From contig NC_069372.1 of the NCBI RefSeq assembly GCF_021730395.1, forward strand, positions 64,220,221 through 64,284,220: a stretch of 64,000 nt of DNA, written 5' to 3'. This document shows, piece by piece, positions 1-59,977 of this stretch. The notes beneath the pieces were generated by a model, which was not told where the DNA came from, did not search any database, and saw only the letters and a list, made by a program, of their open reading frames with translations. How positions within the stretch are numbered: the first letter of the stretch is position 1; the number at the start of each line of letters is the position of its first letter. Position numbers and translations under genes: made by a program. Source of the DNA: Mercenaria mercenaria. Taxonomy: Eukaryota.

Positions 1-609
1 AAGTGAGCTAAAAAGCAAGTGCACATGTACTGGTTAAGCCTATCAGTTCAGCTTTTCAACACATTATATGCTCGAGTATATTTACTGGAAAGATGCACAT
101 TAGTAACAGGCAAACACATGCGTGTTCCCTACATTTTGATACCTTGCATACTTTTCAAGATATAACAGGGGCTACATTTTGCGGACAGATGGAAGGCACA
201 CCAATTGTATCCCTGTTTTTTTTAACTGGTAGAGAACTAACAATCCCCTCTATACCTCATTATACTTGACATCTGGACAGAAATCTTAATGCAGATCAAT
301 CTGGGATGTTTTCTTAGAAAATTTGTTGAACAGATATTAATTCTTTCTTCATTATTTCAACCCATCTAGCACTGCACTCTACACAAGGAAAAGTTCTGAC
401 AAGCTTTAAGCATTACCACTTAAGGTATTAGGTCACTAATAGAGAACCTCCTTTTTGAAGAGTATTCAATTCCTACCATAAACCTACTTTTACTGCAATT
501 CTTAGGGGGCGTAGGTTCAAGCCCTACTGGGACCAAATTTTTTTCCCCTTATTTTCCTTTTTTTCTAGTAAGTTTTTACTTCTTTCAAGACTTATTATTG
601 ATTTCTTGT

Positions 610-1600: not shown

Positions 1601-2499
1601 TAAGCGATTTCTTGGTGTTCAAAGTGAATTTACTACTTAAACAGAAGGGCTAGAGTTACACATCTTTAAAAATATTGAGTTATACGCGGTGAATGTTCTC
1701 TATTTTGCTTTCACTCTTAAATTATATATTGTGGAAGAAATTTAGGTGGGTTTTACGTCTGCCCTAAAGTTATTTTTAAATGGAGTAAGCAAAATTCAAA
1801 ACAGAAACACAGCATTCGACCTTATTTTTTCAATGTTGAAGTATGAATTCTGTCTCATTAAATCCGTTTACTTGAGGCACTACTGAAAAAATGATACTGA
1901 CATTTTTATTTTGTGTTTTATAATTGTTTACCAATAGTTTGATGTTTCTTTTATTAAAATAAATGGTAAAATGAGTTCTCAGCAAACATTTTGGATAGTG
2001 GCTATCACATCGAAATTCGTCTCTACTTGAGCTTGAGGAGATACCATAAGTTATACAAAATTTATAAAAAACGGCACGGTAAAAGTTGTTTAAAAACTGC
2101 AAAATAGTGCAAAACACGGCTACCTTTCAGAATATACCAAGCAAAGGCCATTTTGTAAACATTACTATTAGTGATCTAATACCTTAATCAAAATCATCCA
2201 GCAAAAAACTTGGTTAAAACTCTACTATAAGATTTTCATTGGTTATGATTGTCAAAATTCATGGGCTGGCGTAGGAGGTGTTGAAACATGGGTAGTATAA
2301 TTATAAACGAATGAACAATGAGCTCACTTTGTTTAATAATCTACTTATAATAGTATTGAATACAATGTGCAGTAAATACATACAGAAATTGTTGAAAACA
2401 TACTTTCACGATGAATGTGATGTTTAATAAATATATGGACACAGTATCATCTGTCAAATATATATGAATCTTTTATGCATTTAATTCACGGAAACCATT

Positions 2500-2790
2500 A
2501 AACCTATCCAATGTGAACTAATGCAGACGCTATTTAACCTATCCAGTATGTTCTGAATATGCAGACACTATTTAACCTACCCAGTATACACTAAATATGC
2601 AGACACTATTTAACCTATCCAGTAGGTACTGAATATGCAGACACTATTTAACCTACCCAGTATACACTAAATATGCAGACACTATTTAACCTATCCAGTA
2701 TGTACTGAATATGCAGACACTATTTAACCTATCCAGTATGTACTAAATATGCAAACACTGTTTAATCTATCTAATATTTAAGAACATTAT
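2500..2790. repeat. Tandem minisatellite, ~40-bp unit (gcagacactatttaacctatccagtatgtactgaatat), ~7 units; degenerate copies continue to ~4300
   Basis: Near-identical consecutive units seen directly. No unique spacers. Confidence 0.85.
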
Positions 2791-4323
2791 CTAACCTATT
2801 AGATATGCACTCAACATATGAACACTGTTGAATCTATCCAACATACACACTATATTACCTATCCAGTATGTTCTTATTATGTGAAAACTAATTTACATAC
2901 CCAAACTGCACTGAATATATTTAGTTCAACGCTATTTAAGCTGTCAATGTACTGAATATATAATCAATCAGTCATGACTATACATGCTATATGAATGCTA
3001 TTTTACGAAACAGTATACATATCCACTGTACTGATTATGTGAGCGCTTTTAAATTTAACTTATCAAGTAAGAGTTGGATATATGAACACCATTTAACTTA
3101 TCCAATACCTAATAATTATATGAACACTTATCAAACCTATTCACAAATCCACAGTCTGTAATATGAACACCATGGTGCATTAACTTTCCAAAATATATTG
3201 AATGTACGTGCAAGCATCATTTAACTGTATAATATATACTGGATATCTGAATACTACTTACACTATCCAAAATGCACTAGAATCCCAAATGCACTAAAAA
3301 CAGGACAACTTCACATACCAATTTAGTATGAAGTATTTAAACACTATTTTACCAAACAGTATCCATTGTGCTCATGTGAAAACTGCTTTATGTAAAGTTC
3401 CGTAAGGCTTTAAATTCTATGTTAAAAATTGATGAAACAGCTTTCTAAATAATGTTTTGCATAATAATATGGTAAAAAACACTTCTTTTGCACATGACCT
3501 TGTACAGTTAGAACCTTAAAAGGTGGCAATCAAAAACAATGGATTCAATAATACTTTTCTACTAAGTTAACTCTTTCATTTTGACAAATATTTCCAAAAA
3601 TAATTGTCAAAAGTAGGATTTAAAAAGAAGTTATAATATTTTATGTTCACAGCATAAAAGATGGCGGCCACATTATACACAAAGTCATTGAGTCTTTAAT
3701 ATATCCATTACATGATGAAAATATGGACACCATTTTACACTGCACAAATACAATGAACACTAAATTTATTAATCCAATGTTTTGAATTTACAAACAACAT
3801 TTAATCTATTCAAAACATCATTTTACCTATCCAATATATACTTCTCATAAGAACACCTTTTCATCAAGTTTGCAAATTTTGATTCAAAAGAACACCATTT
3901 AATCTAGTCAAAATGAATTGAATATAAGAGTATGATTTAAACTGTCCAATATGTTTTGAATATACAAACATCATTTAACCTTAGAAATACATACTGAATA
4001 ATTATGAAAACTGTTAAACTGAATATATGGACATGTTTTAATTGAATTCACTCAATTTCTACTGAATATATGAAAAACATTTAACCAATCCAATATTTGT
4101 TGTTAAAAGTTGGAAACTTATTTAATCTTTCCAATATGTATTGATCATAACAGCATTTTTCAAACCTATTAAGTATCATTAGTATGTCATGAATATACAG
4201 GTTTCATTTAGCCTATCCAATAAGTACTAAATATAATGAATGTGAACATAACATAACATATCTTGTACTTTTTGAATATATAAACACTTTTCAACCCATA
4301 AAATATGTAAAGAATATAATTAT

Positions 4324-4557
4324 GAGCCACACCATAAGAAAACCAACATAGTGCATTTGCGACCAACATGGATCTAGACCAGCCTGCGCATCAGCGCAGT
4401 CTCATCAGGATCCATGCTGTTCGCTAACGGTTTCTCTAATTGCAATAGGCTTTGAAAGCAAACAGCATGGATCCAGACCAGCCTACGCATCCGCGCAGTC
4501 TGGTCAGGATCCATGCTGGTCACAAATGCATTACGTTGGTTTTCTCATAGTGTGGCT
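4324..4557. mobile_element. Palindromic (hairpin) MITE, copy 1: ~95-bp arms (gagccacaccataagaaaaccaacat...ggatccatgctg) around a ~40-bp loop
   Basis: Left and right arms are near-perfect reverse complements. A second copy lies at 53956..54190 with the loop in flipped orientation. Confidence 0.8.
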
Positions 4558-4668
4558 CAGTTATGATCAGTACCTATCTAATATATGCATTACAAATAGA
4601 TGAACACTACTTCAAATGACTAAAATGAACACTATGTGCAAATGAGTTGTGAAACCATAATAAATGGG

Positions 4669-4697
4669 GGGGGGGGGGGGGGGGGGGACCTATTAAC
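4669..4697. repeat. Homopolymer G(29)
   Basis: Seen directly. A spurious proline/glycine-run ORF 4607..4819 overlaps it. Confidence 0.95.
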
Positions 4698-7009
4698 TTT
4701 TGACCTGAGTGTGACCTTGACCTTGGAGCTAGGGGTATGAGTACTGCATAATTATGACAAGCCAGCTCACTATGGGGAACATTTGTGCCAAGTAATATTA
4801 AAATCCTTTTATAAATCACCTAGCTATGGGCTGGATATGAAATTGCAGACAGACACAAAGAGCAATCAAGGAGTGTCAAATATAGTAATGAATTTATGAA
4901 TACAATGTGTAGTGAACATAATTCAACTATTAAGTTTGGATAAAAGAAACAATTAGTGATGAATAATATGAACACAGTTTAAAGTAACACATAATGAATA
5001 CAATATAAAGTACACAATTTATCTGAAATCTAATAATCACAACCAATGTATAATGGATATATGAACAGAGTATACAAAAACCGATAGTGAATACAATGTG
5101 AAAACAAACTAACTAAAGTTTAATAATGAATACAATGGGTAATGAATATATAAACACATTCTGAAGAAATGGATACAAATTTTGAAAATCAATACAATCT
5201 AAACGAAATCTAATGATAACTATGAGCAATGAATATATCAACAAAGTCTGATTTATGACCTGATAATTACAATGTGAAATTAACACAATCTAAATGAAAC
5301 CTAATAATGATTACAATGAATAATGGAGACACAGTACAGGCTAACTGTTTAACATATATCATGTACACTAACATTTACACAGGATGTTCAGAAAGACAAG
5401 GTATCATCCACAGTTCAATGACCTACATCAATCTTCAGTCTTGAGGTATCCTCAGCTTGACCAAAAATATCATACAATTGAATACAGCAGACAATGTTCC
5501 TCAACTCTCAGCACATCCTGAAATATGGAAGGTTTGCATTGTAATAGTCTTAGAGAGCAATCAACGGCACAATAACAGCCCTACCTGGTATTTAAATAGT
5601 CACCTATATAGCACCTGTTAAAAGGAACAAGTTACTATCTACTTGCTGTTAAGTCATTTCATTTAAGTATCAATTTTCTGAGAAACTTTTAAGTTTGTTT
5701 AAGTGTAAGATATTACACATTACAATAAATTAAATTTTATTTTAAATAGTTGACCTGAACTTTCGAATTTATTTTATATGAGATTTTGAAACATTTTCTG
5801 ATGTCATATAGTATGTGTGTATTTGACAGCTACTTCACAGTCAGAATAGTTCTTTTTCAGTGACACTACATATTTATCAATGATCTAGAATTGTAATCAA
5901 GGAGAACTATATGAAATTTAAACAATAAATGTGGAAATTCGACAAGAAGCATTCAAACATTGCATCACACCATCAGTTAGTCAAGCCTACCTTAAGTTAA
6001 AACTGGAAACCACCATGATCAGTGATTTTGTTTCTGTTTTTAGTAATTGTTACCTTGACTTTGACCCTATGGAATCAAAATGACTACTTTTTTATTTCAT
6101 CAAAAAAGTAAAACCAGGATCAGGATTTGAACCATGGTCTGCCTGTTCAACATTACAAACTAAGGTACAATAGACAAACACTTTAGCCCACTGCACAGTT
6201 GTGGAATTTTCTAAGTATGCACATTAAGTTATGCTGACATTGAACTTGACCCCATAGCATCCCAACCTTGCTTTTTCTATAAGAGAACCTTTAGGCAAAG
6301 TTTAATTTCAATACATCAATCTAAGTTAAAGTTACTGAGCAAAAAACACTTTTCTATGTCTATTAATTAATAATAATGACCTTGCCTTTGATTCTTAAGA
6401 GTCATATGCAACCCTGATTTCTGTCTATATGCAAGCTACCTATATACCAAATTTTACTGCAATCTGTCACTCCTAACTCATATTATTGTGGGGAAACTAA
6501 ATTTTGATGCTGCATGCCCACATGGCTGCTTCTGCACGACATCACCCAATCTAATAACCCCCTGTGATTCCAGGGTAGGTCTTTTGGTTGGAATCTTAGG
6601 GAGAGGTAACCCCCATCATAAACCTAGAGAGCTGAAGATGTACCAGGCAAGTTGGCGCTCTCTAACAAACCATGGTACAATGCATTTACTACACCATGAC
6701 TACACAATCATCTAGATTTAGTTGTGATGGCGCTGGTTCTTTGAGATCCTTCCAGGCAGAATCAATGCTGGGCTCTGAGCCTCGACAGTCCACCTCAAAC
6801 TACTGGAGGTAACTCCCATCACCATAGAGCTAGGATACGAGGGAGGAAATCTACTGGCCACACCGGAACAGAAAAGAAGCCAATGCAACCTTTCAAGGTT
6901 ATCTAATAACCAGCTTTTTCAGCTTTGGTACAATGAACCATTTGAACAAAATTGAAAGAAGTCCATCCAAGTTTGGTGAAGATCCATCAACTGGTTCATG
7001 AGAAAACAA

Positions 7010-7375
7010 GAGCTGCCAGTTGACAGCGTGCTCGACTATTCTCAGTGCTTGATAGTATAATATAAGCTATGAGTAAAACTTTAACATTACAATTATGAAT
7101 AAGCATATTCTTAGTCGAAAAGGGGCCATAATTCAGTCAAAATGCTTGATAGAGTTGTCTGCTCCTGTTCACAGAATGGGGTCATGATGGTAAACAAGTA
7201 GGCAAAATATAAAAGCAATATCTCAATGGACTTTGAAAATATTTGGGGTGGTATGCAAACTTTAACATTTGTGTGAAGCTCACTCTAACACTAACGCTCA
7301 CGCTAACCTCGACGCCGGGGCGAGTAGGATAGCTCCCCTGTTCTTCAAATAGTCAAGCTAAAAATGATTTTGATG
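7010..7375. mobile_element. Composite element family, copy 2 (short: left terminus + one internal unit + right terminus ...cgacgccggggcgagtaggatagctcc...caagctaaaaatg)
   Basis: Termini match copy 1 (610/1590) and copy 3 (14270/15310). Confidence 0.65.
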
Positions 7376-8459
7376 TTTTCCTTAAATAAATGTTATTTAT
7401 GTAAAAACACAGCTGTGGTCCCAAATTTAGTTAAAAAGGTTGGCTTGAAATAACTTGGTAATAGAACAGAAGCCAATGCTATATGTTAAAGTTTTGTACT
7501 TCCTGAGGAAAAGTGTTTATTGTGTTTTCATAATTTATATACGACAAATTTTGTCTGAGCAACCGAGATTATACAAATTTGGTAGGAAACTGTTAACAAA
7601 AGCTTCAAAGCAATGCTCTTTTGTAAAGATGTTTTGAAGTTTCCAATGTATAATGTTTATGTTTTACTAAGAAACAATGACCCATTAGTTACCCCAATTT
7701 GACCCAGTTTAAACAATTTTCAGAGCTTTTCAAGCAAGAATTTTTCAGAAAATCTTGCTGTGAAGCGCCATCATGTGGATCATACGAAGTTATTTAAATG
7801 TTAGCTATATCTATCAGCCCCTAGATTTAGCCAAGCAGATCAGGTTCATGCAAGGACATTTGAATATCCATAAAGTTGTTCATAGGAATAAGCTGTTTAT
7901 TATAGCAAAATGTTAACAACAGACGAAACTAACATGATACTATCCATTACCTATATACATTGTACTGGTTCTAGTAAATTGTCTACAGATGTTTTTCAAT
8001 CTCAGCTACAACAGTTTCAGCTTCTGGGAACTTTAGCTTCCTTGGTGGGCCCTTCTTTAATCCAGTCCAAACTACAATATCTGAAATTGTTTTGGTCATT
8101 CTAAGAAAATATTGAAGCATAAATTTCATAACTCCTCTAACACAGTTTACAAAGGCAAAATATTTTCACTTCAATTTTGATGATGTGAATATCACCTTGG
8201 TCAGGTACACTGACTTTTCACTGATATTATCATACAGTATTTTATTAATTATATGTGTGTACCTAGTACACTAATGTGCCCCCAACCTTCCTGTCACTGT
8301 ATGGTCATAAGTTACTTGTCAACAATGCAAGAAAAAGTAAACTTCTGTATTACCTTGGGCTTGGGGTCTGAGTCATAAGGGGAATGCGGTGTGGAGTATG
8401 AATACTACAAAATATTATCAAGAAACACAAGATCAAAGCAACCGAGTGTAAAAAACAAG

Positions 8460-8600
8460 AGCTGTCACAGGAAACAGTGTGCTCAACTATTTAAATGCTG
8501 GATAGTGAAATAGGGCACACCTGAAGGATATATAGCTATCACTGGAGAGTGCAATGCCTGCTATCACTGGAGAGTGCAATGCCTCTAATGTGGATGACTG
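8460..8600. mobile_element. Partial copy of the composite-element left terminus (agagctgtcacaggaaacagtgtgctcaactattt...gatagtgaaatagggcac) followed by a 2x 30-bp tandem (ctatcactggagagtgcaatgcct)
   Basis: Sequence identity to 14270..14330. No matching right terminus was found nearby. Confidence 0.5.
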
Positions 8601-9689
8601 ACCGGACAATACTTTAAAGTATCAACTCAAATGTATTTGTAACAAGAGGGTCACTGACTCTAAAGTGCTCACCTGTGTACAAGGCTTCAAGTGTGTTTGT
8701 ATAAGTACAGAGTTAGGTTTCTTCTATGTTAGCCTATATTATATACATTACATGTCACACACAAGTTTTTGAACCTAGGACAATAATTTGAACAATTACA
8801 GTAAACATTACAAATCTGATATCACAGGCCAAATAAGCAAGGCTCTAGCTATTACTAATTCAGAGAAGAAGATTTTCAAAGTTTCTTATATAAAAGCCTA
8901 TAGTAAGTACATGTCAGACATAGGGTCATGGCCATTTGTTTTACCTTAGGGCAATAATTTTGACAAGTATGATAAGAGTCAAAACCTTATATCACAGGCC
9001 AAATATCAAAGCTCTAGAGAAAAGGATTTTAAAAGTCTGATAGCTGAAAACCTATTTTTAACCAAAAAGACCTATATGTTCAATGAACAGGAACCATTTG
9101 AACAACTCTGAAAGTGAGCTACCCAGAGATCATTTGTGAAGTTTCATCAAAATCCATTCAGTAGTTTTGGAGGATATGTTGTTTAAAGAAATTGTTGATG
9201 AAATGGGACCATGCCCTCTGGTGGCCATTGTTTTTGACTTATCAGAAAATATTTGTAGAAGGTCACACAAGGAGGAAGTTTTACTATATACACAAGAGCC
9301 ATGTTAGACATGGCTAATGCCCCCGCCGGGCATATTATAATTGAAGGCTAAAGTTCCTGGCAAGTTAGTGTCTGAAAGTATTAACTTTGGGGAAAGCTTT
9401 GAAGAACCGTTTAGTTGTGGTCCGCATCAGGGGTTTTAAAGATGTGGAAGAAAGAATAAGTCAATGGTGAAGTGGTTTACTGCTAAATTTTATTAATTTT
9501 CATGAACAGTATAGCTATGATGTTTTTCTATATGGCTACTGTAAAAAGAAGGAATGGAAAGCTTACAGGGAACAAGAGTGCCAGAATGTCACAATATACG
9601 TCCGTCACAGCAAATTTCTTTACTCTAGCAGCAATTTTGTGGTTGTTTAGTTATCATTGTAAGTCTTTTGTTTTTCTAAGTCCACAAAA

Positions 9690-11874
9690 TAGCTCCTTAC
9701 CAGGTAGAGATACCTTAAAATACACCTAAAATTGGAAAGTAACATCTATGTTGTACCACAGAAAAGTGGTCTTGTTTTTTCCCTACGGTCAATTATAAAA
9801 ATGTTACAATATAAGTTATTTATAGTAACAACTAAGGAAAGTTAATTTAAAAAAAAAAAAAAAATTGTAAATGCACACAAAAATCTTTACCAGGTAGAGA
9901 TTGGTCAAAATACACCTCAAAATTGGATGTAGCATGCATGTTGTACTACAAAAAAGTGGTCTCGATTTTTCCCTACGACTAGTAATGAAAAAGTTACAAT
10001 AAAAGCTATTTAAAGTAACAAAAAGGGAAGTAATTCTAAAGAAGGGAACTGCGCATGACACTTCGTCTCATGATGGTGTATAATTGTGCCAAGTTACATC
10101 AAAATCCCTCCATGCATGAAAAAGAAATGCTTCGGGCAAAGTCATTCTTGTATCTGACCTTTGGCCTCTGTGACCTTGACCTTAGACCTAGGGACCTGGA
10201 TCTTGCGCAAGACACTCCGTCTCGTGGTGGTGAACATTTGTGCCAAGTTATATCAAAATCCCTCTATGCATGATGAAGAAATGCTCCGGACAAGGTTTTC
10301 ATTCTTGTATCCTTTGACCTCTAAGTGTGACCTTGACCTTAGACCTAGGGACCCAGTTCTTGCGCATGACACTCCGCCTCGTAGTGGTGAACATTTATGC
10401 CAAGATATATCAAAATCCCTCTATGCATGAAGAAGATATGCTCCGGACAAAATTTTTTAAGAAAATATGATAAAGGGGAATAACTCAAAAAATAAGCAAA
10501 AAATAAGCAAGGTAGAGTTATTGTTCTTGCACACTGCACTTCCTCCCAATGTGTTCTATCAGTGTATGAAGTTTGAAGAAAATCCCTCCAGTACTTTTAG
10601 AGTCATGCTCCGGACAAAATTTTTTAAGAAAATAGGATAAAGGGGAATAACTCAAAAAATAGGCAAGGTAGAGTTATGTGTTCTATCAGTGTATGAAGTT
10701 TGAAGGAAATCCCTCCAGTACTTTTGGAGTTATGCTCCGGACAAAGATCGTTGCGCACGCACACACGCACGGACGGAGAGCATTTCTAAGATCCCCTTCG
10801 CCTTTGGCGGGGGGATAATAAAGGGAAAAGTGACCACTCCCCCTGGCAGCCATGTTTTTTGACGAATCAGAATAATTTGAACAATCTTGGTAGAAGGGCA
10901 CACAAGAACCATCTGTGTAAAATTATTTTAAAATCGGGCTAGCAGTTTCACACAAGAAGATTTTTGAAGTTTCCACTATATACATGTAGTGAAAAGTGAC
11001 TGCGCCCTCTGGCTGCCAAGTTTTTTGACAAATCAAAAATATTTGCACAATCTTGGTAGTGGGGCAAACAAGGACCATTTGCTTAAAATTATTTTAAAAT
11101 CGGACAAGCAGTTTCACACAAGACTTTTTTTTTAAATTTCCACTATATACATATAGAGAAAAGTGACTACGCCACCTGGCGGCCATGTTTTTTGACGAAT
11201 CAGAAAAATTTGAATAATCTTGGTAGAGGGTCACACAAGGACCATGTGCATAAAATTATCTTAAAAGCGGGCTAACAGTTTCACACAAGAAGATTTTTTA
11301 AATTTCCACCATATACATATAGGGAAAAGTGACCACACACTCTGGCGGCCATGTTTTTTGACGAATCAAAATAATTTGAACGATCTTGGCAGAGGGTCAC
11401 ACAAGGACCGTTTGCGTAAAATCATTTTAAAATTGGCCTAGCAGTTTCACACAAGAAGATTTTTTGATATTTCCACTATATACATATAGGGAAAAGTGAC
11501 CACGCCCCCTGGTGGCCATGTTTTTTGATGAATCAGTATAATTTGAAAACCTTGGTAGAGGGTGACCATTTGTGTGACATTATTTCAAAATCAGGCCATG
11601 GCTTTGGCTACCTATCTAACTTGGCCGAGGACTTACTGGCAAACACATTTTGTTCAAGTTAGGTGAAGATCGGATGAGAAATGTTCGACTTAAAGAGTGC
11701 GGACAAGTGTGTATGGAGCGATTTTCAGTAACTCGAGGGCCATAATTTCGAAATGCCTGTGCCGATTTTGCTCGTTATCGAACTTGGCCTTGGACTTATT
11801 GTCAAACACATTTTGTCCACGTTTGGTGAAGATCCGATGAGAAGTGTTTGACATAGAGCGTGGGCAAGATTTGT

Positions 11875-11910
<36 letters not shown>

Positions 11911-11960
11911 CAGCAGTAAATCAATATATCTCCCACACCACTATGTAGTGGGAGACATTA
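9690..11960. mobile_element. Composite repeat block A. Module 9690..10040 is a terminal region with a duplicated ~170-bp sub-unit and A(16). Module 10040..10440 is ~3.5 units of a ~115-bp satellite (gtgaccttgaccttagacctagggacc...). Module 10440..11560 is ~165-bp arrays (gtgaccacgccccctggcggccatgttttttgacgaatcag...). Module 11560..11960 has 2 units, then (CA)13, then a hairpin terminus tctcccacaccactatgtagtgggagacat.
   Basis: Periodicity read directly. Block A' at 34960..36390 is the reverse complement of modules 1 and 2. The hairpin terminus recurs at 57505..57550. Confidence 0.7.
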
Positions 11961-12562
11961 AATTCCAAATCAAAAGGGGACATAATTCATGAAACATTGG
12001 TCTCAGTTATGGACCGTGTGTCGAATGATGAAGAAAATGATACAAAATAACTATTTTAAGTTTGAATCAAATCCATTATCTAATAATTATAATATTATAG
12101 TGTAAATTTATTAAAGATCCAAACTAAAAGATTTATTAAAGATCCGAGCTAAAAAGTAAGTCTTTTTCTAAATCTATAAATGTTAAAGGCTTTTGTCATT
12201 TTACAATAATTTTGCTACCTGGTAAGCTTTTATTTGATTCAATCAAGTAAACATCATTTACTGTTGAACAATCATAATTATAAATTACCATCACACATCT
12301 TAAATAAAAGTATTTTTTTTCCTAAATTTAATGGGATATTTTCTCAAATCTCTGTAGAAAGTGACATTTGAAGAATGTCGAAAAAGGCCTAGCCTCAAAC
12401 TAAAACCATTAGCAAACAATACTGTTTCATTACAATTCAGCTGAAAGCCTTTACCAGGGGAAAATTCCATGTAACTCATTAAGTCACTGTTTACAGAGTA
12501 AATAATATTTACAATACAAAATTGATGTAATCTGTTCAACTGTTTAGTAAACATATAAAATA

Positions 12563-12722
12563 TTATTTATAAATACCATCTTTCCCATCCCTGGAAACGA
12601 CAAGTTCAAAGCTGCCACGTCTGGGAGCTGAAGGATTAAGTTCAACTTCGAACTCCCCATACTTCTGGCGCAAGTCCTCAACCAGGGCTAAGGCCTTGCG
12701 CTTGAACACTTGTCAGGATTTG
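12563..12722 (-). CDS. SELENOH: Selenoprotein H-like (SelH/Rdx family) coding exon with in-frame TGA (Sec) at 12715..12713. Translation: (C)KS-U-QVFKRKALALVEDLRQKYGEFEVELNPSAPRRGSFELVVSRDGKDGIYK*
   Basis: Minus-strand acceptor tttgtttctttgcag|c at 12723/12722. If the upstream exon ends in TG, the junction codon is Cys, giving C-K-S-U, a CxxU redox motif. U-to-NP spacing (25 aa) and the NPxxPRRGSFE[VL] motif match human SELENOH (CTSU...VKVNPTKPRRGSFEV). Stop TAA at 12565..12563, unless the weak donor after GKD is used. Confidence 0.6.
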
Positions 12723-13599
12723 CTGCAAAGAAACAAACACTAATTTAATGTTACTAAATAATAATTTTGGGTTAAAACTGTGCCCAAATTCAAATGAAAA
12801 ATAAGTGTTTTCCCAATTTCAGAGCTAAAATTCCCAATATCATAAAAAAAATACAGATTTAAAAGATGACATAGTCTCAGTCAAATATGTCAGATTGCAC
12901 AAGTTGAGGTATACTTGCCAAAACATTTCCGAAGGAGTATACCCTGGACCCCTCTAGAGACTTCTCTTGCCCCTACATCCAAAACCTTGACCCACATTTG
13001 GTAGGTGCCGACTATTGAACTCTGCCCAAAAGAGTTGATATATTATTGTGCTAATTAGGTGACAACATCATGCCGGACATGTCATTAAGTTGACAACTGG
13101 TTTGTTACAGGATGACAGTTGTCCCAAGCAGTTTGAATACAAAGGGATTTTGCAGGACAGATCTGAATCTGCACTAAAGCAGTACAACTGGGTAACTATC
13201 TGATTATTTTCAATGTCTTGCTCAGAAAAACATGCATATTATCACTTTCATTTACATAATTACATGTACAGTTTGGGCAGTCAGCAAGTTACTTGAGAAA
13301 ATTCTTCAAATTCAGTACAAATACCATGGCAGAATGATGAGTGGCTGTCATCACTAGCCTTGAACCATATCTACATGACCTACTGGCTATAATTTTTCCC
13401 TACTCATGCTCCTGAAAAAGTTAAGCTCGAAAACAGTTTTGAAAAGTGTATCAGGGCTTTTCCCCCATCAATAAATCTACCTCTAGAAGAAAGGAAGTAA
13501 TCCCAAAGCAAACAAGAGCTGGTAGAACCAGAAATGCCCCCTTGATGCATTCAGTAATTGCACAAGGAACAGAAATGATTTGGTCACTATACACAAAAG

Positions 13600-14220
13600 T
13601 TCTACTGTCCTGGATCAATGTGACCTTTGACCTTAAAATCTATAGGGGTCGTCTGCTGGTCATGATCAACCTCCCTATCAAGTTCGTGGTCATAGACCCA
13701 AGCATTCTCAAGTTATTGTCCGGAAACCATTTAACTGTTCCGAGTCACTGTGACCTTGACCTTTGGCCTACTGACCTCAAAAGCAATAGGGGTCATCTGC
13801 TGGTCATGACTAACCTCTCTATCAACATCCATCATCCTAGACCCAAGTGTTCTGGAGTTATCATCTGTAAACTGTTTAACTGTTCTGACCTCAAAATCAA
13901 CAGGGGTCATCTGCTGGTCATGACCAACCAACTTTCAACCTCCCTATCAAGTTTTGTGGTCATAATAGGCACAAGCGTTCTCAAGTGGGGTCATCTGCTG
14001 GTCATGATGAACCTCCCTATCAACTTTCATGATCCTAGGCCCAAGTGTTCTCAAGTTATCGTCTGGAAAAGGTTTAATTGTTCCGGGTCACTGTGACCTT
14101 GACCTTTGACCTACTGATCTCAACCTCAATAGGGGTTATCTGCTGGTCATGACCAACCTCCCTATTTACTTTCATGATCCTAGGCCCAAGCGTTCTTGAG
14201 TTATCATCCAGAAACGGATT
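13600..14220. repeat. Tandem array B, ~120-bp unit (caggggtcatctgctggtcatgaccaacctccctatcaa...gtgaccttgacctttggcctactgacctcaa)
   Basis: About 5 units seen directly. ORF 13446..14096 (216 aa) is a periodic translation of this array. An inverted partner lies at 33770..34200. Confidence 0.85.
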
Positions 14221-14269
14221 GGTCTACATACCAACAGACATCTTCAAAGGGGAGCATAAAAAGAGCTGT

Positions 14270-15310
14270 CACAGGAGACAGCGCGCTTGACTATTTCGAT
14301 GCTGGATAGTGAAACTGGGCACATTTGATGAAGCTGGAGCTGTCACTTGGGTGTTTAATGACTCCAACATGGATGAAATATTGGATAATAGCTTGAGTCT
14401 GTGTCAAAAGTATTAAGTAATAAGAGAGATAAGGATCAAGTGTATCAAAACATTAGATATTATTATGTATAATTCTTAGCAAAAAGGGGGCATAATTCAT
14501 GAAATACTGGTGCAACAGTGATGCACCTTGTGTAATGTTGAATCAAATCCATTTTGTAATAACTTAAGATATAGAGAAAATGCATCAAAATTAACCTTTA
14601 ACTCTTAAGTAAAAGGGGCATAATTCATGAAAATTTTGTGCCAGAGTTATGGACCTTGTGTCATATGATGTGGGTGATAAGGTGGAACAACTGTTTTAAG
14701 TTTGAATCAAATCCATTTAGTAATAACTGAGATAGAGTGAAAGTGCATCATAACTATAAGTAAAATAGAGGATAATTCATGATATAATAGTGCAAGAGTT
14801 ATGGCCCTTGTGTCATATGATGTGAGTGATGATGTTGAACAACTATTTAAGTTTGAATCAAATCCATTTAGTAATAACTGAGATAGAGTTAAAGTGCACC
14901 AAAACTTTAACCTGAAATTCTAAGTAAAAAGGGGGGAATAAATCATGAAATATTGGTGCCAGAGTTATGACCTTTGTGCCTGCCATATGATGTGGGTGAT
15001 GATGTTGAACAACTATTTTAAGTTTGAATCAAATCCATTTAGTAATAACTGAGATAAAGTGAAAGTGCACCAAAACTTTAACCTGAAATTCTAAGTAAAA
15101 AGGGGGGATAATTCATGAAATATTGGTGCCTTGTGTCATATGATGTGGGTGATGATGAGGAACAACTATTTTAAGTCTGAAGTAAATCCATCAAGTAATA
15201 ACAAAGATAAAGAGAAAGTGCATCAAAACTTTAACCAAAGTGCAGACGCAGAAGGACGTGGACGCCGACGCCAGGTCGAGTAGGATAGCTCTCCATACTT
15301 CGTAAAGTCG
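14270..15310. mobile_element. Composite element family, copy 3: left terminus + 5 tandem ~165-bp units (aaaaggggcataattcatgaaatattggtgccagagttatgg...tttgaatcaaatccatttagtaataactgagata) + right terminus (gacgcagaaggacgtggacgccgacgcc...tcgagctaaaaag)
   Basis: Termini are shared with 610..1600. The internal satellite is a different variant from copy 1. One isolated unit of this satellite also sits at 11960..12090. Confidence 0.75.
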
Positions 15311-15689
15311 AGCTAAAAAGTACGCTTTTCCCCCAATTCTGAATTTTAGATAAGGTTTTTGCTATTTTAAAATAGTTTTGCTAATTTGTATGTATATTTT
15401 GGTTATTAAAACAACTGAACAGTTATACTGTTGAACTATTACTGAAATGCAATCCATCAACATTTCACCAAAAAGAAAAAACTTTACTTAGAATTTGGTA
15501 ATTTGCAAATTTTCCCAATTAACCCTTACCCTGCTAAATTTCTATAATGAACTTGTTTATCTTCCAATTTGGGCAGTACCATTAACGGTTAAAAGGTTAA
15601 TGCAGCCTTCCACGACTTGCAGATAACCTAATGCAGCATTCCGCTTCTTGAAAATAACCTAACGTAGCATACCACTGTAACGTTATGTT

Positions 15690-16440
15690 ATTTTCAAGCG
15701 GGAGCTGCGTTGTATTTCAAGCGGGAATGCTGCGTTATGTTATTTCATCAGTGAAGCTGCGTTATGTTTCAGCCGGAATGCTGAGTTATTTTCATCATGG
15801 AAGCTGCGTATTATTTTCAAGCAGAGGAACGCTGCGTTATGTGTTCTTCTTGCATTGGAATGCTGTGTTATGTTATTTTCAAGCAGCGGAATGCTGTGTT
15901 ATGTTATTTTCAAGCAGAGGAATGCTGCGTAATGTGTTCTTCTTGCAGCGGAATGCTGCGTTAGGTTATTTGCAAGCAGTCGAATGCTGCTTTATTTGCT
16001 CCTCCTGCAGTGAAATGCTGCGTTAGGTGCTCTTCTTGCGGTGGAGTTTTAAGAAGTGGTATGCTGATTTTTGTGCTCTTCCTGCAGTGGAATGCTGCGT
16101 TATGTTATCTACAAGCAGCGGAATGCTGTGATATGTTATCTTCAAGCAGTGCAATGCTGCGTTATGTGTTATTATTGCTGCGTTAGGTTATTTGCATGCA
16201 GCGAAATGCTGCATTATATGTTTTCTTGCAATGGAAGGCTGCGTTAGGTTATCTGCAAGCAGTGGAATGCTGCGTTATGTTTTTTGTAAGCAGCGGAATG
16301 CTGCGTAATGTTGCTTTATGTGCTCTTCAAGCAGCGGAATGCTGCATTAAGTAATCTGCAAGCAGCAGATTGCTGCGTTATGTGCTCTGCAAGCAGCGGA
16401 ATGCTGCGTTATGTGCTCTGCAAGCAGCGGAATGCTGCAT
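15690..16440. repeat. Minisatellite, ~43-bp unit (gcagcggaatgctgcgttatgttattttcaa), ~17 units
   Basis: Direct periodicity. ORF 15685..16026 is a repeat translation. Confidence 0.9.
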
Positions 16441-16654
16441 GATGTTTTCTGAAGGCAATGTATTCCTGCTGAAATGGGTTTGAGACGATTGGGCTTTGGT
16501 GATCTGATCGATGGTCTTTCATAGAAGTGGGATATTAATGTACAAGGTAACCACGGTAATTAAGTATCGTTAGTAAGTATTTCTTTGTTTTCCATTTACT
16601 GCATCAATAATTTTGATACAGAAGACTGTTAGCATTTTCTCTCTTTGTTATCTC

Positions 16655-17570
16655 GATATGCTGCCATTAATATACCTTATTCCTACTTTTATTGTTTCTT
16701 TTTTGTCTTGTTGAAGGTAACTGAGATTAGAGAATAATTGATTTACTCACAGCTTTAGCGTGAGTAAATAAAATTATTCGCGTTTCGAAATTACTTTTCT
16801 TGGTAGTTTATCCCAGTACTAGTTTGGTCTGAAGTTTATGCTAGTATATTTGGGCACTCTTTGTCACGTGAATTTCGTGAAATATTTCGGCGTATATATG
16901 TGAACTGATATTGTTCTCACCACTCGAGGTTTATAATTGGCAGCAAACAGTCTGTACCCGCCCTCCCTCCCATGATGTATGTTGGTGCTTGTATTTTAGT
17001 TATAGCTTGCTTCAATGAAACAAACTGGCCTGAAAATCGCTTGTCTAGAATATTAAGTTTATTTTATTATAAAATAAATGTTGTTTTTGGTTTATGTTTA
17101 CTATTCTACACAGGTTATGTTAAGTTTTGAATACATATAATATGTGTTTGTTTTTTTTTCTAAGTAAATCACCCCGTTTGTTAGTTGTAAAGCTACAATT
17201 TTGGTTGTATCTGTTTGATTCTGGTGATGTTTTTTCTAATAAAATCTTAAACACCAGATAAAATTAGAGATTTTATTAATTATTCACGCCTGTGTTTTAC
17301 GCAAACTTGAAACATTTATCTTAACAACATGATTAAATTTACTTTTAGTCTTGTTTCAGTTCAAATTTACCCGGATACTAGATCGCTTGGAACCATACGA
17401 AGAACATTAAATCGATTGTTGAAATATGAATTTACTTCGCGAACAATTGTACACTTTTATGCTGCCAATTATATACCTTATTCCTACTTTTATTGTTTCT
17501 TTTTTGTCTTGTTGAAGGTAATTGAGATTAGAGAATAATTGGTTTACTCACAGCTTTAGCGTGAGTAAGT
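16655..17570. repeat. Pair of ~110-bp direct repeats (16655..16770 and 17465..17570: ataccttattcctacttttattgtttcttttttgtcttgttgaaggtaactgagattagagaataattgatttactcacagctttagcgtgagtaa) flanking ~700 bp
   Basis: Seen directly. No PBS/PPT was recognised, so a TRIM/LTR-like reading is unsupported. Confidence 0.6.
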
Positions 17571-18179
17571 GCATTCTGTGTGACTGAAACATCAGCATCA
17601 TATGCGTATTTACAGCAGATCAGAACTGAATGTTAAAGAAATTAAAAAATCATAATTTCTACTTGAGATTTTGCAACTGCAAAATTTTGCAAGTTTGGGC
17701 AAAAGTCACTAGCATGTTGCCAGAATGCGAGCTTAAATTCGAACCCTGAGTCCCTTATCCAGCAAGTTCTCAGATATAATATGCAAAATTGTATGAAATG
17801 TACTCAAGACTAAATTTTCCCATGGAAGCATTTTTTTTTACCTTTTGCCTGCTATATTTCTAAAATGGACTGGTCCTATTAAGTTTGGGCTATACTATTT
17901 ATTATTTGAAGGGGAGTTCATTTAAAATTTACAGACTGAGTAGCAAACAGTGCAGACCATGATCAGCCTGCACAGCTCTTGGTCTACACTGGTTGCAAAG
18001 GCAAAATCAACTGCCACCAGCAGGCTGAAGGTTAAAGAAAATTACCTCTCCCCGAAGACATTGTAACCCCCTCTTCCTCTTCCACACCACAGTTACCTCA
18101 AAATACCACCTCCCCATCTTAAAAACTATCCCATTCCCAACTGAATCCCCACACCCCTCCTTCCCCCCTGTTCCCTTTA

Positions 18180-18232
18180 TCTGTAAATTACCCCCCCCCC
18201 CCCCCCCCCCCCCCCCCGCCCCCCAAAAAAAA
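18180..18232. repeat. Homopolymer C(~38), interrupted once, followed by A(10)
   Basis: Seen directly. ORF 18007..18276 (poly-Gly) is spurious. Confidence 0.95.
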
Positions 18233-18679
18233 AAGCAGCTTGCAAAGCTGAAGTGGATTTTTTCTGAATAACCCATTTGAGGTTGCTTCTACACATTTCA
18301 TGTAGTCTGACGTTTTATCGAAATTATAAATTTCCCGGTAGAGCGTTCCGCAAAATATCTTGCGGAAGGTTTTACAAGTTCACGGTGGAAGTGACTGAAA
18401 AGCGATAACTAAATACCAACAACGGACAAAGAAACCTATTTTACACACCAACTGAACGTCTTACTGAAAATATTGAAGATTTGTCCGCACTCTCAAAGTG
18501 AAATTTACATCCATGCACTTTCGCAACACAACACGAAACTGTCAAATCTTCCTTATTATAAAGAATGATTTTTTAAAAAATAGTCTCACGGTCGATGGGT
18601 GTAACCAGCATTTATTGGTTTTAATTAAATTAAAAGTTATTTCAATAAATTATTAGTTCATATCAAAGCAGTTTGAAAG

Positions 18680-19228
18680 GCTAGTCCACGCGGTTGGTGT
18701 AAACACCCGGGGACACCTTTCTTTTTATAAAAATCTTTGAATTTGATTGTTTTCATTGCAGCTTTATCATATTAAGCAATAAAATGAGCATGAATATAGG
18801 TGTATCATAAGTAGCAAACTCATAACACGAGCCCCGGGACGCCCGATTTTTCTTTGCGATTACAGTGATAAACTGCATACACCGGGACACCTTAAGAAAG
18901 CTTGCAAATACTTATTTTGTTCTTTAGATGTATATATTTCTGAAATAGATAAAGCATAAATTTAAGAATATTATAAGTAGACTATATAATAAAGCATACC
19001 CCGGGATGCCTGTTTCGTCACTATTATGCAGTATGCGGTTCTCGGATGAATCAGGCGTCACGGGTTCATGTTATGAGTCTGCTACTTAGGATACACCTAT
19101 ATTCACGCTCAATTTATTGCAAAATATGGGAAAAAATGCAACAAAAACAGTTAAATTAAAGCTTTCTATGAAAATAAAGGTATCCCGGGGTGTCCCAGGG
19201 TGTTTACCCCGACCCTAGTCCATCAGCA
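18680..19228. repeat. Large imperfect palindrome (~550 bp) with two mirrored arm segments (ctagtccacgcggttggtgtaaacacccggggacacc // ggtatcccggggtgtcccagggtgtttaccccgaccctagtcc; and ...gtgtatcataagtagcaaactcataacacgagccccgggacgcc // cgtcacgggttcatgttatgagtctgctacttaggatacacc)
   Basis: Reverse-complement matching of arms, read by eye. Confidence 0.7.
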
Positions 19229-20559
19229 TGCCCACTCCTTTTTGAAGTAAAGGGTACATGTACCCCCTGCCTTTGCAGAATAGGGGTACACTTCAAAACT
19301 TGGGGGTACACTACACAGCAGATCTGAATTTTTTTCTATTCAACTACTGAAATTGGTGTATACATGTTTTTTCATGCTGAACTCTTGTGGGTGGGGTATA
19401 ACAGACGAGATAATTTTAGGAAATTTAAAATGTTTTTCCAAAGTAAAGATAAGAAATTCTGAAACAAATGCCCCTCCCTATATCAACAAATGCCCCTCCC
19501 TATATCATATCGTAGATACCCATGTATAATGCGCAATTTTTTTACCCCCGGGATTACCGCCGAATCGTGGGTGCGCATAATACACAGGTATAGACAATTT
19601 TCCAACTTCAAAACAAGTTTATTACCAATGTTCGCCATTTTGGTAAAAAGAAACTACTCCCCGTGCTTACTGTCACCACTAAAATCTAAGATTGCCGTAA
19701 CATACCGTAAAAGATCGAATGGTTTATTTTTCTTTCAAACAAAATTAATTTCATATAAATTTAAAAGTATTTTGATGAAAGAAATGTTAATAAATCACAA
19801 AAATTATGATACTATTAATTAAAGATCGAGAATTATCTTTAAACGAGGTGAAACTGTGAACAACATAACTGACACGAGGTGACACGTTAATTGCCGGTAA
19901 TTACTGGCTATTTGATCATGACAAAAAGACTATCACACCTTTTGTTATCAGTTTGAATTGAGAAGCTCATGTCATTTTGAAAGATCTATGCCATTCCGAA
20001 ATATTGAATCAGCTGCTATTTATTTATTCAAAATAGTTAATTAAAAAAGGTAAAACAAAAAATACAACATTTTACTGGTTTTATTTTCGAGAAAACAAAA
20101 ATCGATAGTACCGCGAGACCGATGCGCTCTCTGCCGCGGAGATAAAATTTATTACCAGTGTCAATGTAAACTCTACTTTCGTTTTCCATCCACCTCAAAA
20201 TTGACCAAAAATTTTTTTTCCCCCCAGGATTTTGGGCTTAAATCGGGGGATGCGCATTATACACGGGTGCGCATTATACATGGGTAACAACAGTACTAAA
20301 TATAAATACGTCTTCAGCAAGGTTCATGTATTTCCTGATTTCGTGGACGAAACTAGATTCGTCCGATATAACATACAGTCAACTGAGGACTTGTAAAAAT
20401 CGCCGATCAATAATAAATGCCCAAACTATTACAGATATGAAATGTGTATCAAAATTGCAGTTAAATATATCAAAGAAAATACTGTTAATTACCCTTTTGC
20501 TGAGTTCATAAAAGCTAAAAATGCGTTTCTGCATTTCGTATCAATACTTTTTTTGCACA

Positions 20560-20885
20560 CAACCCATGTGACGTCTGACGAAAACACTTACCAAACCCCT
20601 CTATGCAGCTGACAATTACGCCGAGAGTTTGGTGATGGAAACGAAATAATCAAGACCGGATCTGCGTTTTAGACCGTACTAAAGAATCGGCAAGTGCGAG
20701 ATAAAATAAACAGCAATTTAGCAGCATGTGACGTCTGACGAAAACACTTACCAAACCCCTCTATGCAGCTGACAATTACGCCGAGAGTTCGGTGATGGAA
20801 ACGAAATAATCACGACCGGATCTGCATTTTAGACCGTACCAAAGAATCGGCAAGTGCGCGATAAAATAAACAGCAATTTAGCAAT
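20560..20885. repeat. Two tandem copies of a ~165-bp unit (catgtgacgtctgacgaaaacacttaccaaacccctctatgcagctgacaattacgccgagagt...)
   Basis: Near-identical consecutive copies seen directly. Confidence 0.9.
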
Positions 20886-21769
20886 TGAATGTAGGACTAG
20901 GAGTTCCGAATCTCTGCGTGCATGTACCCCCAAGAAGTGCATTTGGTATTTTGTGCGTGATTCACGTACTGCAGTGCATGAATGGGCATGCTGGTCCATG
21001 TGTATTCGGCGGTACCCATGCGTTAAATAATGGCCGCAGATTTTTTACTAGTGCCTTAGGCTAAACCTATTTTTCGTCTAAGCATGTATAACTGAGTCTA
21101 AATATTTATTCGGTGTTGTATTGTTCATGATATTTCATTAAATTACGCTAGAAGAATCTGTGTAATGTGTCAGGGAAGTGATTGGAGGTGCAGTTTTAGT
21201 TACGGTAAACCAATATCACGTGTTTGAGGGTTTTCCTACATTACACTCCAATAAAATTAGGTCGAAATCTGTGCTATGCAAACGGCTGTCGTTCCATTAA
21301 ACTTGACACAGGGACATGTTGAACGTCCAAATATTAAAAGGCTCCCTGTGCAAGTTTAATGTTACTGAATAGTCATGGGCGTAACTGTTTTAAGTTATGT
21401 AACCTATTTCAGTTACTTTTTCATATTTATAACCTGTATTAGTTATAAAATATAGTTAACTCAGGTAAGTTATTCAAAAAAAGTCTTTTTGCTGTTCTCA
21501 CAAAGTGACCTTTAAAGTGACATTAGTAGCAAAGTGTGGTTAATCAAATTCTCTTTTAGTCTGATCATGACCTGATAAGCATAATGGGATGTTAAGAGAC
21601 TGGTTTTATAGCTTTAAAACTTTTGCCTAAACCTTTATCAGCCCTGCGTAAAAATAATTTACTGCATAGCTGGAAAGATAAAGGTTCAAGGATTCAGGAA
21701 ATAATTGCATTAGTCTCATTCAAAATAAGGATTTTGCACAGGAGGGCTTTGTAATATTTTATGATAGGC

Positions 21770-22585
21770 AGTGGCTAGGGTTACGGTACAGTAATCCTAG
21801 CCTCCGATTCTAGGATTAGGGAAGTTCCGTATTTCTAGACAACCCTATGGGGTTAGGCTAGGATTACGGAAGTGTAAGAGGCAAAGCAAATAAATGTTAG
21901 AACATGCATAAATGATGTTGTAAACTTACTTATTTCACTTAAAATAGTGGCTTTTCATGCCTGTCGTATAATTTCGTGTTATCGATCTGCCATTTTGGGT
22001 TAGTAATTTTAAGAAGAATGAGAACAGAAAAAATGGAGAAGAACGATTAAAAATGAAAGAAAACATGCAAAATCATGACTATGAAATAATAACGTAACAA
22101 AAACAAAATTACAACAATATTTAAAAAAAAACAGCACACGTTTATTTTTTTTTAATGGAAAGTGAAAAGAAAAATAAATGGGCCATGAACTGAGCACCTC
22201 CTCGTGATGTGGCCCCGATATAGTTGGACAATTATGTAAACATTGAAACATTACTATTTTCATTAAGAGGATTTCAACTTTTATCATTCATAATCATTCA
22301 TCAACAGCGCATAAATAATTATCCACCTATATTTTACTAACCCAAAATGGCGAATTGATAACACGAAATAATATGGCAGACATGAAAAATCGTTATTTCA
22401 AGTGAAACAAGTATGTGTACCACATCATTTATGCATGTCCTAATATGTATACTTGATTCCTCTTAAATACTTCCGTAATCCTAGCCTATTCTCATAGGGT
22501 TGTCTAGAAATACAGAACTTCCGTAATCCTAGAATCGGAGGCTAGGATTACGGTACGGTAACCGTAGCCACTGCCTTTATGATAA
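21770..22585. mobile_element. Foldback-type element: ~270-bp terminal inverted repeats (aggcagtggctagggttacggtacagtaatcctagcctccgattctaggattagggaagttccg...) flanking a ~270-bp A/T-rich core
   Basis: The left arm at 21776..22045 is the reverse complement of 22310..22576. Confidence 0.8.
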
Positions 22586-23879
22586 TGGAAACAAGTTATG
22601 GAAGTATAAGCAATAACTCAAATGGGTTATGAACTGCGATAACTTGAAACAGTTACACCCCTGACTGCTAACAAGGTAAAATTTAACTCTTTCACATAGA
22701 AATGTTAACAATGAGATACAATTACTATATAATATATATGTGGTACACTAAGTGTCAAAGTGGTACATAAAGTGTCTGGTACATAAAGTGACAGGCACAT
22801 AAGGTGTTGCACCCCTGCTGAACTAGGGTGAATTGTGTTTAAATGTGGGTGAATTGGGTTTAACGACTTATTTTTGTGTCCTAGAGCTAAAATTAAGAAA
22901 AATCCCATACTACTTTAACTACTCCTAGACTCATTAAACCCAATTCACCCATGTGCCGGACCCCTTTGCAGATACCGCGTCGCGAAATCTTGTGACATTT
23001 GAATATATTGCGCTATTCATTACCAGTGCTCAATTGTCATACGAAATTTCACAGCTGATACTGAAGTTTTAGGTCTTTTGCCAGGGGATGCCTCACTTTT
23101 AACTACATGGGCCTCATCAGTGGCCGATTTTGGTCTTTTCTTTCCAGTTTTTCCTGGCATCGTTCAATTTGGCGGGTTCTGAAGTATGAGTTATGTCCCC
23201 TATCCTTCTTGACTCCATTTGTATCGAAGTGGCCCAGGTTAAAGGTTACTAATTTAAATCATTCTTTGTTTCATTAAAGGCAACTTTGCGTAGCTCTATT
23301 TTAACAAAAATCAAACGAAAGTGAAACTAACAAGTATCGACTGAAAACAAGCACGAACGCGAAAATGACTCAAATGCGAATGAAAATGAAACGGTTGTAC
23401 ATCAGAAGCAGGACATATACGGTTCTGATACAGATGAAAAATCCAACACTGAATGAAGATGCATAAAGGGCAAAAACAAGCATTTGAAACAAAATATTAG
23501 CTAAACAATTACTTATTTCGTGAAATTGGGGCCTGATTACGCACACAATTCGGAAAGCAACGCATAGAAAGCTTTGTTTTAAAATTTAGTACAATTTAGA
23601 ACCAATTAATATCAAAACCAAAACTTTATTCACATTGTATTATAATTCTATATTTTAAAGAGACACATGAATTCATAGTAGTGAGGTCATATCTCAAATA
23701 AATGATGAAAATAACGGATAAAAATTAGGTTGACAAAAGCAATATTTTTCTTGAAATAGGGAGAGGTCGAAGGTACTTCAAAGGTTTAATGTGTGGTATT
23801 GTTATCCTATATCAATGATCTGTTAATCAGTGATGTCTATGTTATACTGCTTATCAATCGTTATCGATTATAACTAGCA

Positions 23880-59553: not shown

Positions 59554-59977
59554 CTGAAAGACATAAAAATAACGCAGTCTTCTAAATGCAAAAGATATCT
59601 GAAGTATAAATTGTAGACCCATATAAGTTCTACGATTTTATATAATAGTTACTGTTTGTAGTCCAGTTTTTTATTATTTCAAGAGATCGGAGAAAAAATA
59701 ATGTATTTTCTCAATAATAAAAATAGAAAATGGTTTTTATATGTCAGTGTATGACTAGCATTTCTTTCAAAATTTAGGAATGATTTTTCACTACTTTTAA
59801 AGAATGGACTCACTAAAACTCGTATGATTTATTATTATAACAGCCATCCGTATCCAGATTTATTTCCAGCTTCAGTACCTTATGTTGCCATCAATTATTA
59901 GGAATTGTATTCACTTTGTATCTATAGAAAAATCTTTCATGTTTCTTTTCTGCAACAAATTTAAAGCAAAGTCTTAC

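Follow-up and report, generated by a model that had tools for sequence, protein, structure and literature searches.

The stretch analyzed here, 64,000 nucleotides of Mercenaria mercenaria DNA (NCBI RefSeq assembly GCF_021730395.1, contig NC_069372.1, positions 64,220,221 to 64,284,220 of the forward strand; hereafter the window), contains between ~23.2 and 5.4 kb a gene of four exons that, judged from its sequence, is very probably the selenoprotein H (SelH; human SELENOH) ortholog of a bivalve-like mollusc, with an in-frame TGA predicted to be decoded as selenocysteine (Sec) and a selenocysteine insertion sequence (SECIS) element within exon 4. All features of the gene are on the minus strand, and coordinates are those of the window. 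A preliminary description had picked out one segment of this gene (12563-12722) as a SelH exon in which the TGA is the Sec codon of a CxxU motif and which open reading frame (ORF) calling based on stop codons misses; this proposal holds, and the gene, the conserved TGA and the SECIS element have now been recovered. The window has ~36% G+C, many satellites and reverse-transcriptase fragments, and genes with multi-kb GT-AG introns; from this composition and from the bivalve nearest relatives (Mactra, Dreissena, oysters), we conclude that it is nuclear DNA of a bivalve-like mollusc.

The four-exon gene and its product

The coding part of exon 1 (23160..23024) begins with the ATG at 23160-23158 and encodes MPGKTGKKRPKSATDEAHVVKSEASPGKRPKTSVSAVKFRMTIEH followed by the first two bases, TG, of a Cys codon. 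The exon was found by tblastn with the orthologous protein P0001 (E = 2e-11), and the 5' untranslated region (UTR) reaches at least ~23176, because the 5' end of the related transcript L001 matches 23176-23132 in blastn. The donor reads CAC TG|gtaatg (TG at 23025-23024, GT at 23023-23022); the upstream exon does end in TG, as had been surmised, and its joining to exon 2 gives Cys-Lys-Ser-Sec. Its location is another matter: a Lys/Arg-rich N-terminal exon had been expected within 12730..13500, where we find only repeat-derived open frames, and exon 1 lies 10.3 kb upstream. The intervening intron 1 (12723..23023; 10.3 kb, phase 2) splits the Cys codon and is packed with satellite arrays and repeats; its counterpart is ~0.85 kb long in a metagenomic bivalve-like contig (L007) and ~4.8 kb long in the genomic locus of Dreissena (L005).

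Exon 2 (12722..12577), the exon flagged at the outset, encodes (C)KS-U-QVFKRKALALVEDLRQKYGEFEVELNPSAPRRGSFELVVSRDGK(D). Its minus-strand sequence had been read correctly: after the acceptor tttgtttctttgcag| at 12723/12722, the exon begins at 12722 with c-AAA-TCC-TGA-CAA-GTG-TTC, translated KS*QVFKRKALALVEDLRQKYGEFEVELNPSAPRRGSFELVVSRDGKD, in which the TGA at 12715-12713 is codon 49, the U of C-K-S-U. The 25 residues from the TGA codon to NP and the PRRGSFE core that had been noted are also both present in this exon. Its 3' limit required correction, that is, the exon ends at 12577 and not at 12563: the donor is GAT G|gtattt at 12577/12576 (GT at 12576-12575), and the last 14 bases of the flagged segment (12563-12576, read as …GIYK*) are intron read-through, because the junction to exon 3 is in phase 1 and the spliced sequence is colinear with the intronless transcripts of relatives. 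Intron 2 (8081..12576; 4.5 kb, phase 1) contains an (AC)16 microsatellite at 11876-11907.

Exon 3 (8080..7951) encodes (D)IVVWTGLKKGPPRKLKFPEAETVVAEIEKHL and contains the TAG stop codon (7985-7983) followed by 32 nt of 3'UTR; at the phase-1 junction between exons 2 and 3, G and AT together specify Asp, and related transcripts have GKDD at this position. Exon 4 (5517 to ~5380, the limit of similarity to relatives) is the last exon and consists entirely of 3'UTR. The joined coding sequence of 137 + 146 + 98 nt comprises 126 codons plus TAG, with the TGA as the sole internal stop; none of the exons is disrupted or frameshifted, and their splice sites are canonical GT-AG. Across all three junctions, the one postulated at 12722 among them, the intronless transcripts L001 and L006 align colinearly with the spliced model; the genomic loci from Mactra (L004) and Dreissena (L005), and L007 too, keep the Cys codon split and retain the phase-1 intron that follows GK(D).

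The proposed relationship to SELENOH is borne out by tblastn. With a human SELENOH query (U entered as C), exon 2 is matched with E = 4e-7 and exon 3 (match region 8084..7986, reading SDIVVWTGLKKGPPRKLKFPEAETVVAEIEKHL) with E = 6e-11, and the next match has E = 0.03; UniRef mammalian SelH entries align likewise. A search of protein databases with the joined 81-residue peptide returned 36 homologs, down to E = 8e-42. Those that bear a family name are all annotated as selenoprotein H or SelH-like, not as SelW, SelT or SelV; they include proteins from Dreissena, Littorina, Haliotis, Saccostrea, Crassostrea virginica, Magallana gigas (K1QN44) and several vertebrates, mammals among them. The best homolog, P0001, is 93% identical over the 81-residue query and 81% identical over the full protein; it derives from an assembled intronless transcript and reads RMKIEHCKSWQVFKRK, in which the W is a TGA called Trp by the gene caller of that collection.

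The product of 126 residues matches the Pfam family Rdx (PF10262) over residues 40-123 (36.9 bits, cutoff 22.6; E = 4e-9), and its redox motif, Cys46-Lys-Ser-Sec49, is specified by TG|C AAA TCC TGA, formed over the exon 1-2 junction. Within PRRGSFE, the F and E are invariant in the family, and conservation of the P, R, G and S is 90% or higher; this block and the block W[ST]G[LIV]KKGPPRKLKFP (here WTGLKKGPPRKLKFP) are invariant or nearly so among 17 aligned sequences that include mammalian SelH. The N-terminus is basic, with Lys and Arg accounting for 11 of the first 40 residues (e.g., in GKKRPK and GKRPK), and it has no canonical RGRP AT-hook core.

To assess the fold we turned to P0001, the ortholog with 81% identity; confidence for the core of its AlphaFold model is moderate (predicted local distance difference test, pLDDT, 67-80). 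In this model the first ~37 residues are disordered and basic, and the topology thereafter is beta1 (39-44), CKSU loop (46-49), alpha1 (50-67), beta2, beta3, beta4, alpha2. The top Foldseek matches in the PDB are the SelW-related structures 2fa8, 2obk, 2oka, 2ojl, 2p0g and 3dex (TM-score relative to the target, 0.62-0.73), and further matches are mouse SelW (2npb) and then thioredoxins. The model accords with the description of human SELENOH, whose fold is thioredoxin-like and which has a CXXU motif and, at the N-terminus, a basic region that resembles a nuclear localization signal or AT-hook (PMC10646972).

The SECIS element and the split 3'UTR

The SECIS element occupies 5487..5408 in exon 4; in the spliced model, as computed from the coordinates, it lies ~310 nt past the UGA and 76 nt past the stop codon. 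Its core is formed by AUGA (5473-5470) and the 3' GA (5429-5428), and helix II by 10 bp between 5468-5459 and 5440-5431; the unpaired AA (5458-5457) follows 11 nt after AUGA (N11). Beneath the internal loop, helix I pairs UCAAU (5481-5477) with AUUGA (5418-5414). At the apex, GAGG (5453-5450) pairs with CCUC (5446-5443), and with this mini-stem the element is therefore of form 2.

We located the element with a descriptor (ATGA, N9-14, AA, then GA, with helix II paired). The best match in the 3 kb past the stop codon is 5473..5428, which is clearly like the top matches in the transcripts L001 and L002; the transcript L003 carries a comparable element by descriptor scan and folding. At a strict threshold this site is the sole match on both strands of the window (128 kb). 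The unconstrained minimum-free-energy folds of the elements from the window, L001 and L003 have one shared SECIS shape, that is, helix I, an internal loop with AUGA and GA, a helix II of 9-11 bp, unpaired A-rich residues and an apical mini-stem.

A covariance model (R1) was then built from the L001, L002 and Mactra elements only, with the window excluded. R1 matches the window at 5487..5408 with 57 bits (E≈3e-11), and the next match in the window scores 17.8 bits; it scores the L006 element at 46.8 bits and the Dreissena element (L005) at 36.9 bits, and gives no match to the more divergent SECIS element of L003. Across six aligned elements, 94% of the cells are paired, and sliding the 3' partners lowers this to 29-45%. 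Both sides have changed (compensatory changes) at five pairs; helix II is 94% paired across orthologs, with two pairs changed on both sides, and the AUGA and GA core is invariant in all six elements. In the L006 element (468-547; GGUCGUACUGG), UA stands in place of the unpaired AA (CAAG in the window, AAAA in L001); this could be either a real non-AA variant or an assembly error.

In genomic DNA the element of the window is 2.5 kb past the stop codon, as opposed to 56-80 nt in the transcripts of relatives, and in L001 and L002 sequence like 8072-7976 is joined straight to sequence like 5521-5380 (blastn); we therefore place a 3'UTR intron of 2.4 kb (7950..5518) between the stop codon and the SECIS exon. 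Its predicted donor, a strong one, is 32 nt past the stop codon (TATAG|gtaatgg; exon end at 7951, GT at 7950-7949), and its acceptor is tttcag|GATGTGCTGAG (AG at 5519-5518), so that exon 4 starts at 5517, 44 nt upstream of AUGA; similarity of this exon to relatives extends to ~5380. The L006 transcript reads TATAG|GA over the junction. In Mactra the donor ACAG|gtaatt is ~35 nt past the stop codon and the acceptor is 44 nt before AUGA, and Dreissena has a matching acceptor context (cag|GTTGTGCTGA); the 3'UTR intron follows the stop codon after 32 nt in the window, and after ~35 nt and roughly 19 nt in Mactra and Dreissena, respectively.

This architecture is already described and not new: an intron interrupts the 3'UTR of vertebrate SelH and the SECIS element is wholly in the last exon, and a split 3'UTR has been reported for vertebrate SelH, SelT, SelV and SelW (Mariotti et al., PMC3316567). 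One might suppose that the short distance from stop codon to intron and the location of the SECIS element alone in the last exon, seen in three bivalve genomes, represent an ancient selected regulatory device and not a historical accident; we regard this as unlikely. Were it true, Sec decoding or the selenium-dependent decay of the mRNA might be tuned by an exon-junction complex just upstream of the SECIS element; another possibility would be an off-switch, in which transcripts that lack the SECIS element result from retention of the intron or from alternative polyadenylation.

Downstream of the element, in what is putatively the 3'UTR (~5330-4900, minus strand), several imperfect copies of a repeat unit similar to cattgtaWtcattattagRtttcRtttagattgtRtt can be made out by eye; the only array that Tandem Repeats Finder detects over this region is a short one of 26 nt (4968-5016). 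ATTAAA occurs at ~5124-5119 (minus), also downstream of the element.

Conservation past the TGA and alternative readings

A TGA is present at the same codon in all seven related loci and transcripts, that is, the intronless transcripts L001, L002, L003 and L006, the genomic loci from Mactra (L004) and Dreissena (L005), and the contig L007; neither a sense codon nor a gap, which the preliminary description had named as possible findings in orthologs, occurs at this position in these seven, and a more distant homolog (P0024) has Cys there (CKSC). Pairing of Sec with Cys among homologs is the usual pattern. In exon 2 the window differs from its closest relative, L001, at 18 nucleotides, 17 of them at third codon positions; the ratio of synonymous to non-synonymous codon changes is 17:1 in comparison with L001 and 9:2 in comparison with L007. 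By these codon comparisons the reading frame past the TGA is under purifying selection; such conservation is not expected if translation stops at codon 49.

The same data bear on the most serious alternative, namely that the locus is a decaying or non-functional SelH copy in which the TGA is a true stop, the product is a 48-residue peptide or a degraded transcript, and the ability to decode Sec is gone. In its favor, introns 1 and 2 are long and repeat-filled, the evidence for expression comes from relatives and not from the window species, and Rfam gives no SECIS match; however, every exon is intact, with canonical splice sites and an undisturbed frame, the substitutions past the TGA are predominantly synonymous relative to both L001 and L007, the core and base pairs of the SECIS element are maintained, with compensatory changes, and the presence of introns means that the gene is not a retro-copy. 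We consider a decayed copy very improbable.

Still less probable is that the 3'UTR is unspliced and the SECIS element lies elsewhere. The preliminary description had suggested looking for a SECIS element downstream on the minus strand, and one is present in the 3'UTR; its own candidate at 12440..12380 fails, because that segment is inside intron 2, in which neither the descriptor nor R1 has any match. A second hairpin, at ~7775..7710 (minus), can be seen by eye at 7773-7715, with AUGA, a long imperfect stem, an AAAAA loop and a 3' UGA; we rejected it as a SECIS element, since its AA is 25 nt from AUGA (N14 at best), its core is asymmetric, it has no counterpart in the transcripts of relatives and no R1 match, and it lies inside the 3'UTR intron. 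The transcripts of relatives, moreover, go directly from the region of the stop codon to the block at 5521-5380. Finally, a chance resemblance, that is, an intronic TGA in SelH-like sequence, has nothing in its favor except that the exon is short, and it is effectively refuted by three colinear exons that join in the correct splice phases into a complete 126-codon SelH, by E-values down to 8e-42 and by the conserved SECIS element.

Several observations nevertheless weigh against the assignment as a Sec-decoding SelH gene or against details of its model. The transcript evidence that supports the gene model comes from relatives only. The exact 3'UTR donor (7951|7950) is a prediction from the splice consensus and from relatives, and it stays a prediction because the closest of these, L001, seems to splice ~20 nt earlier. 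The best match in a collection of 5.8 billion proteins is the 93% identity over the 81-residue query noted above, and no identical protein is found there. The energy of the SECIS fold is unexceptional relative to shuffled sequences (z = -0.98), so the support for the element is its motif and the comparison with relatives. Rfam (15) finds no SECIS family in window segments 1-20000 and 5380-5520 (141 bases), even at E <= 10, and none in 6400-8100. It likewise gives no SECIS match in the transcripts L001-L003, and because the relatives are missed too, the result looks like low sensitivity of the Rfam models rather than absence of a SECIS element. What Rfam does report in these scans are weak, chance-level snoRNA and miRNA matches and, over the SECIS element itself, C/D-box snoRNA families; we suspect that the latter arise from the common UGAUGA…CUGA kink-turn-like motif.

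If the gene is, as we believe, a functional SelH ortholog, UGA codon 49 would be read as Sec and not as a stop, and translation would continue to the TAG at 7985-7983. The form-2 SECIS element in the last exon, ~310 nt past the UGA in the mRNA, would recruit SBP2, eEFSec and Sec-tRNA[Ser]Sec, the standard eukaryotic mechanism. The predicted product is an oxidoreductase, small and thioredoxin-like and with a tail of basic residues at its N-terminus, for which a nuclear or nucleolar redox function may be proposed. With the predicted 3'UTR donor, the true stop would be 32 nt before the last exon junction, and no nonsense-mediated decay is expected (50-55 nt rule); the UGA, when read as a stop, would be 136 nt before the exon 2-3 junction and would trigger such decay, and selenium-sensitive mRNA levels are therefore predicted. 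Selenium-sensitive mRNA levels are a property of vertebrate SelH.

Surrounding sequence and known selenoprotein H genes

The remainder of the window is rich in repeats. Two reverse-transcriptase ORFs on the plus strand, 23907-24751 and 30055-31551 (Pfam RVT_1, E = 1e-12 and E = 9e-40, respectively), are copies of non-LTR (long terminal repeat) retrotransposons; the first of these begins on the strand opposite to the SelH gene, ~750 bp upstream of its ATG. Satellite or minisatellite arrays are located at 10818-11563, 678-1499, 10050-10451, 14770-15236 and 15811-16450. Intron 1 carries a 166/333-nt repeat, and downstream of the SelH gene there is likewise an array of 166/333 nt; the arrays also include 157-nt and 153-nt units and a 31-nt minisatellite of ~20 copies. 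Open frames derived from the arrays (e.g., KTWPPGGVVTFPYMYIVEI) are repeat artefacts of six-frame translation. On the minus strand, an open frame of 182 codons (59891-60439) has a low-complexity half rich in Thr, Ser and Gly, followed by CTTFPCMIFEDNFDFLNLDVWEHEITASGGG; by eye it looks like the beginning of a domain of the beta-1,3-glucanase or glucan-binding (GH16-type) kind, and it has no Pfam match at E <= 0.001. In the relatives, the SelH neighbors are PfkB and CAF1 genes in Mactra (L004) and RING/B-box (TRIM-like) and PALP genes in Dreissena (L005), so local synteny around SelH is not obviously conserved between these two.

The bivalve entries P0003 (Dreissena polymorpha), P0002 (Mactra antiquata), P0011 (Magallana gigas K1QN44), P0028 (Crassostrea virginica) and P0010 (Saccostrea echinata), all SelH-like, are orthologs, with 48-72% identity over the mature domain, and the Mactra and Dreissena genomic loci share with the window the exon phases, the TGA and a homologous SECIS exon. 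In the public models for these two loci (P0002 for L004, P0003 for L005), exon 1 is joined to a position within exon 2 such that the CxxU motif is skipped; other public models (P0006 from Littorina, P0007 from Haliotis, and P0010) are partial and start right after the Sec codon. The model presented here contains both the Sec codon and the SECIS exon. An early survey of invertebrates lists no SelH for the gastropod Lottia (Jiang et al. 2012, PMC3473315), and in the literature searched no specific account of SelH in the selenoproteome of an oyster or other bivalve was found.

As an ortholog of a well-known and widely conserved selenoprotein, the gene is real but ordinary, and its novelty is low; it matters chiefly for annotation, and its family is one in which standard gene finders often go wrong. 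Conventional ORF and gene callers overlook the gene: they take its Sec codon for a stop, a 10-kb intron divides its Cys codon, and another intron, in the 3'UTR, sets the SECIS element apart. With the correct model the selenoproteome of the species gains one selenoprotein, and the lineage-specific SECIS model supplied with it finds the element in other bivalve loci examined.

With other eukaryotic form-2 SECIS elements, the element of the window shares the AUGA…GA kink-turn core, a helix II of 10 bp, AA 11 nt past AUGA, the apical mini-stem and a helix I beneath the internal loop; it is unlike them in that Rfam does not recognize it and in that one relative (L006) has UA for AA. With vertebrate SelH (SELENOH, formerly C11orf31; Rdx thioredoxin-like family), the gene shares a length of ~120-126 residues, a basic N-terminus, the CxxU motif at the same alignment column, the 25-residue spacing from U to NP, TGA-encoded Sec, a SECIS element in the 3'UTR, and the PRRGSFE and WTG[LI]KKGPPRKLKFP blocks, with 39-41% identity to two ruminant SelH entries; the 3'UTR intron and the confinement of the SECIS element to the last exon are also common to both (PMC3316567). 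The differences are that the motif is C-K-S-U here and C-T-S-U in mammals, that the N-terminal stretch is GKKRP here and the AT-hook-like RGRKRK in mammals, and that the introns here (10.3, 4.5 and 2.4 kb) are much larger than those of vertebrates. SelH, its Sec codon and the split 3'UTR architecture are, as expected, conserved from molluscs to vertebrates.

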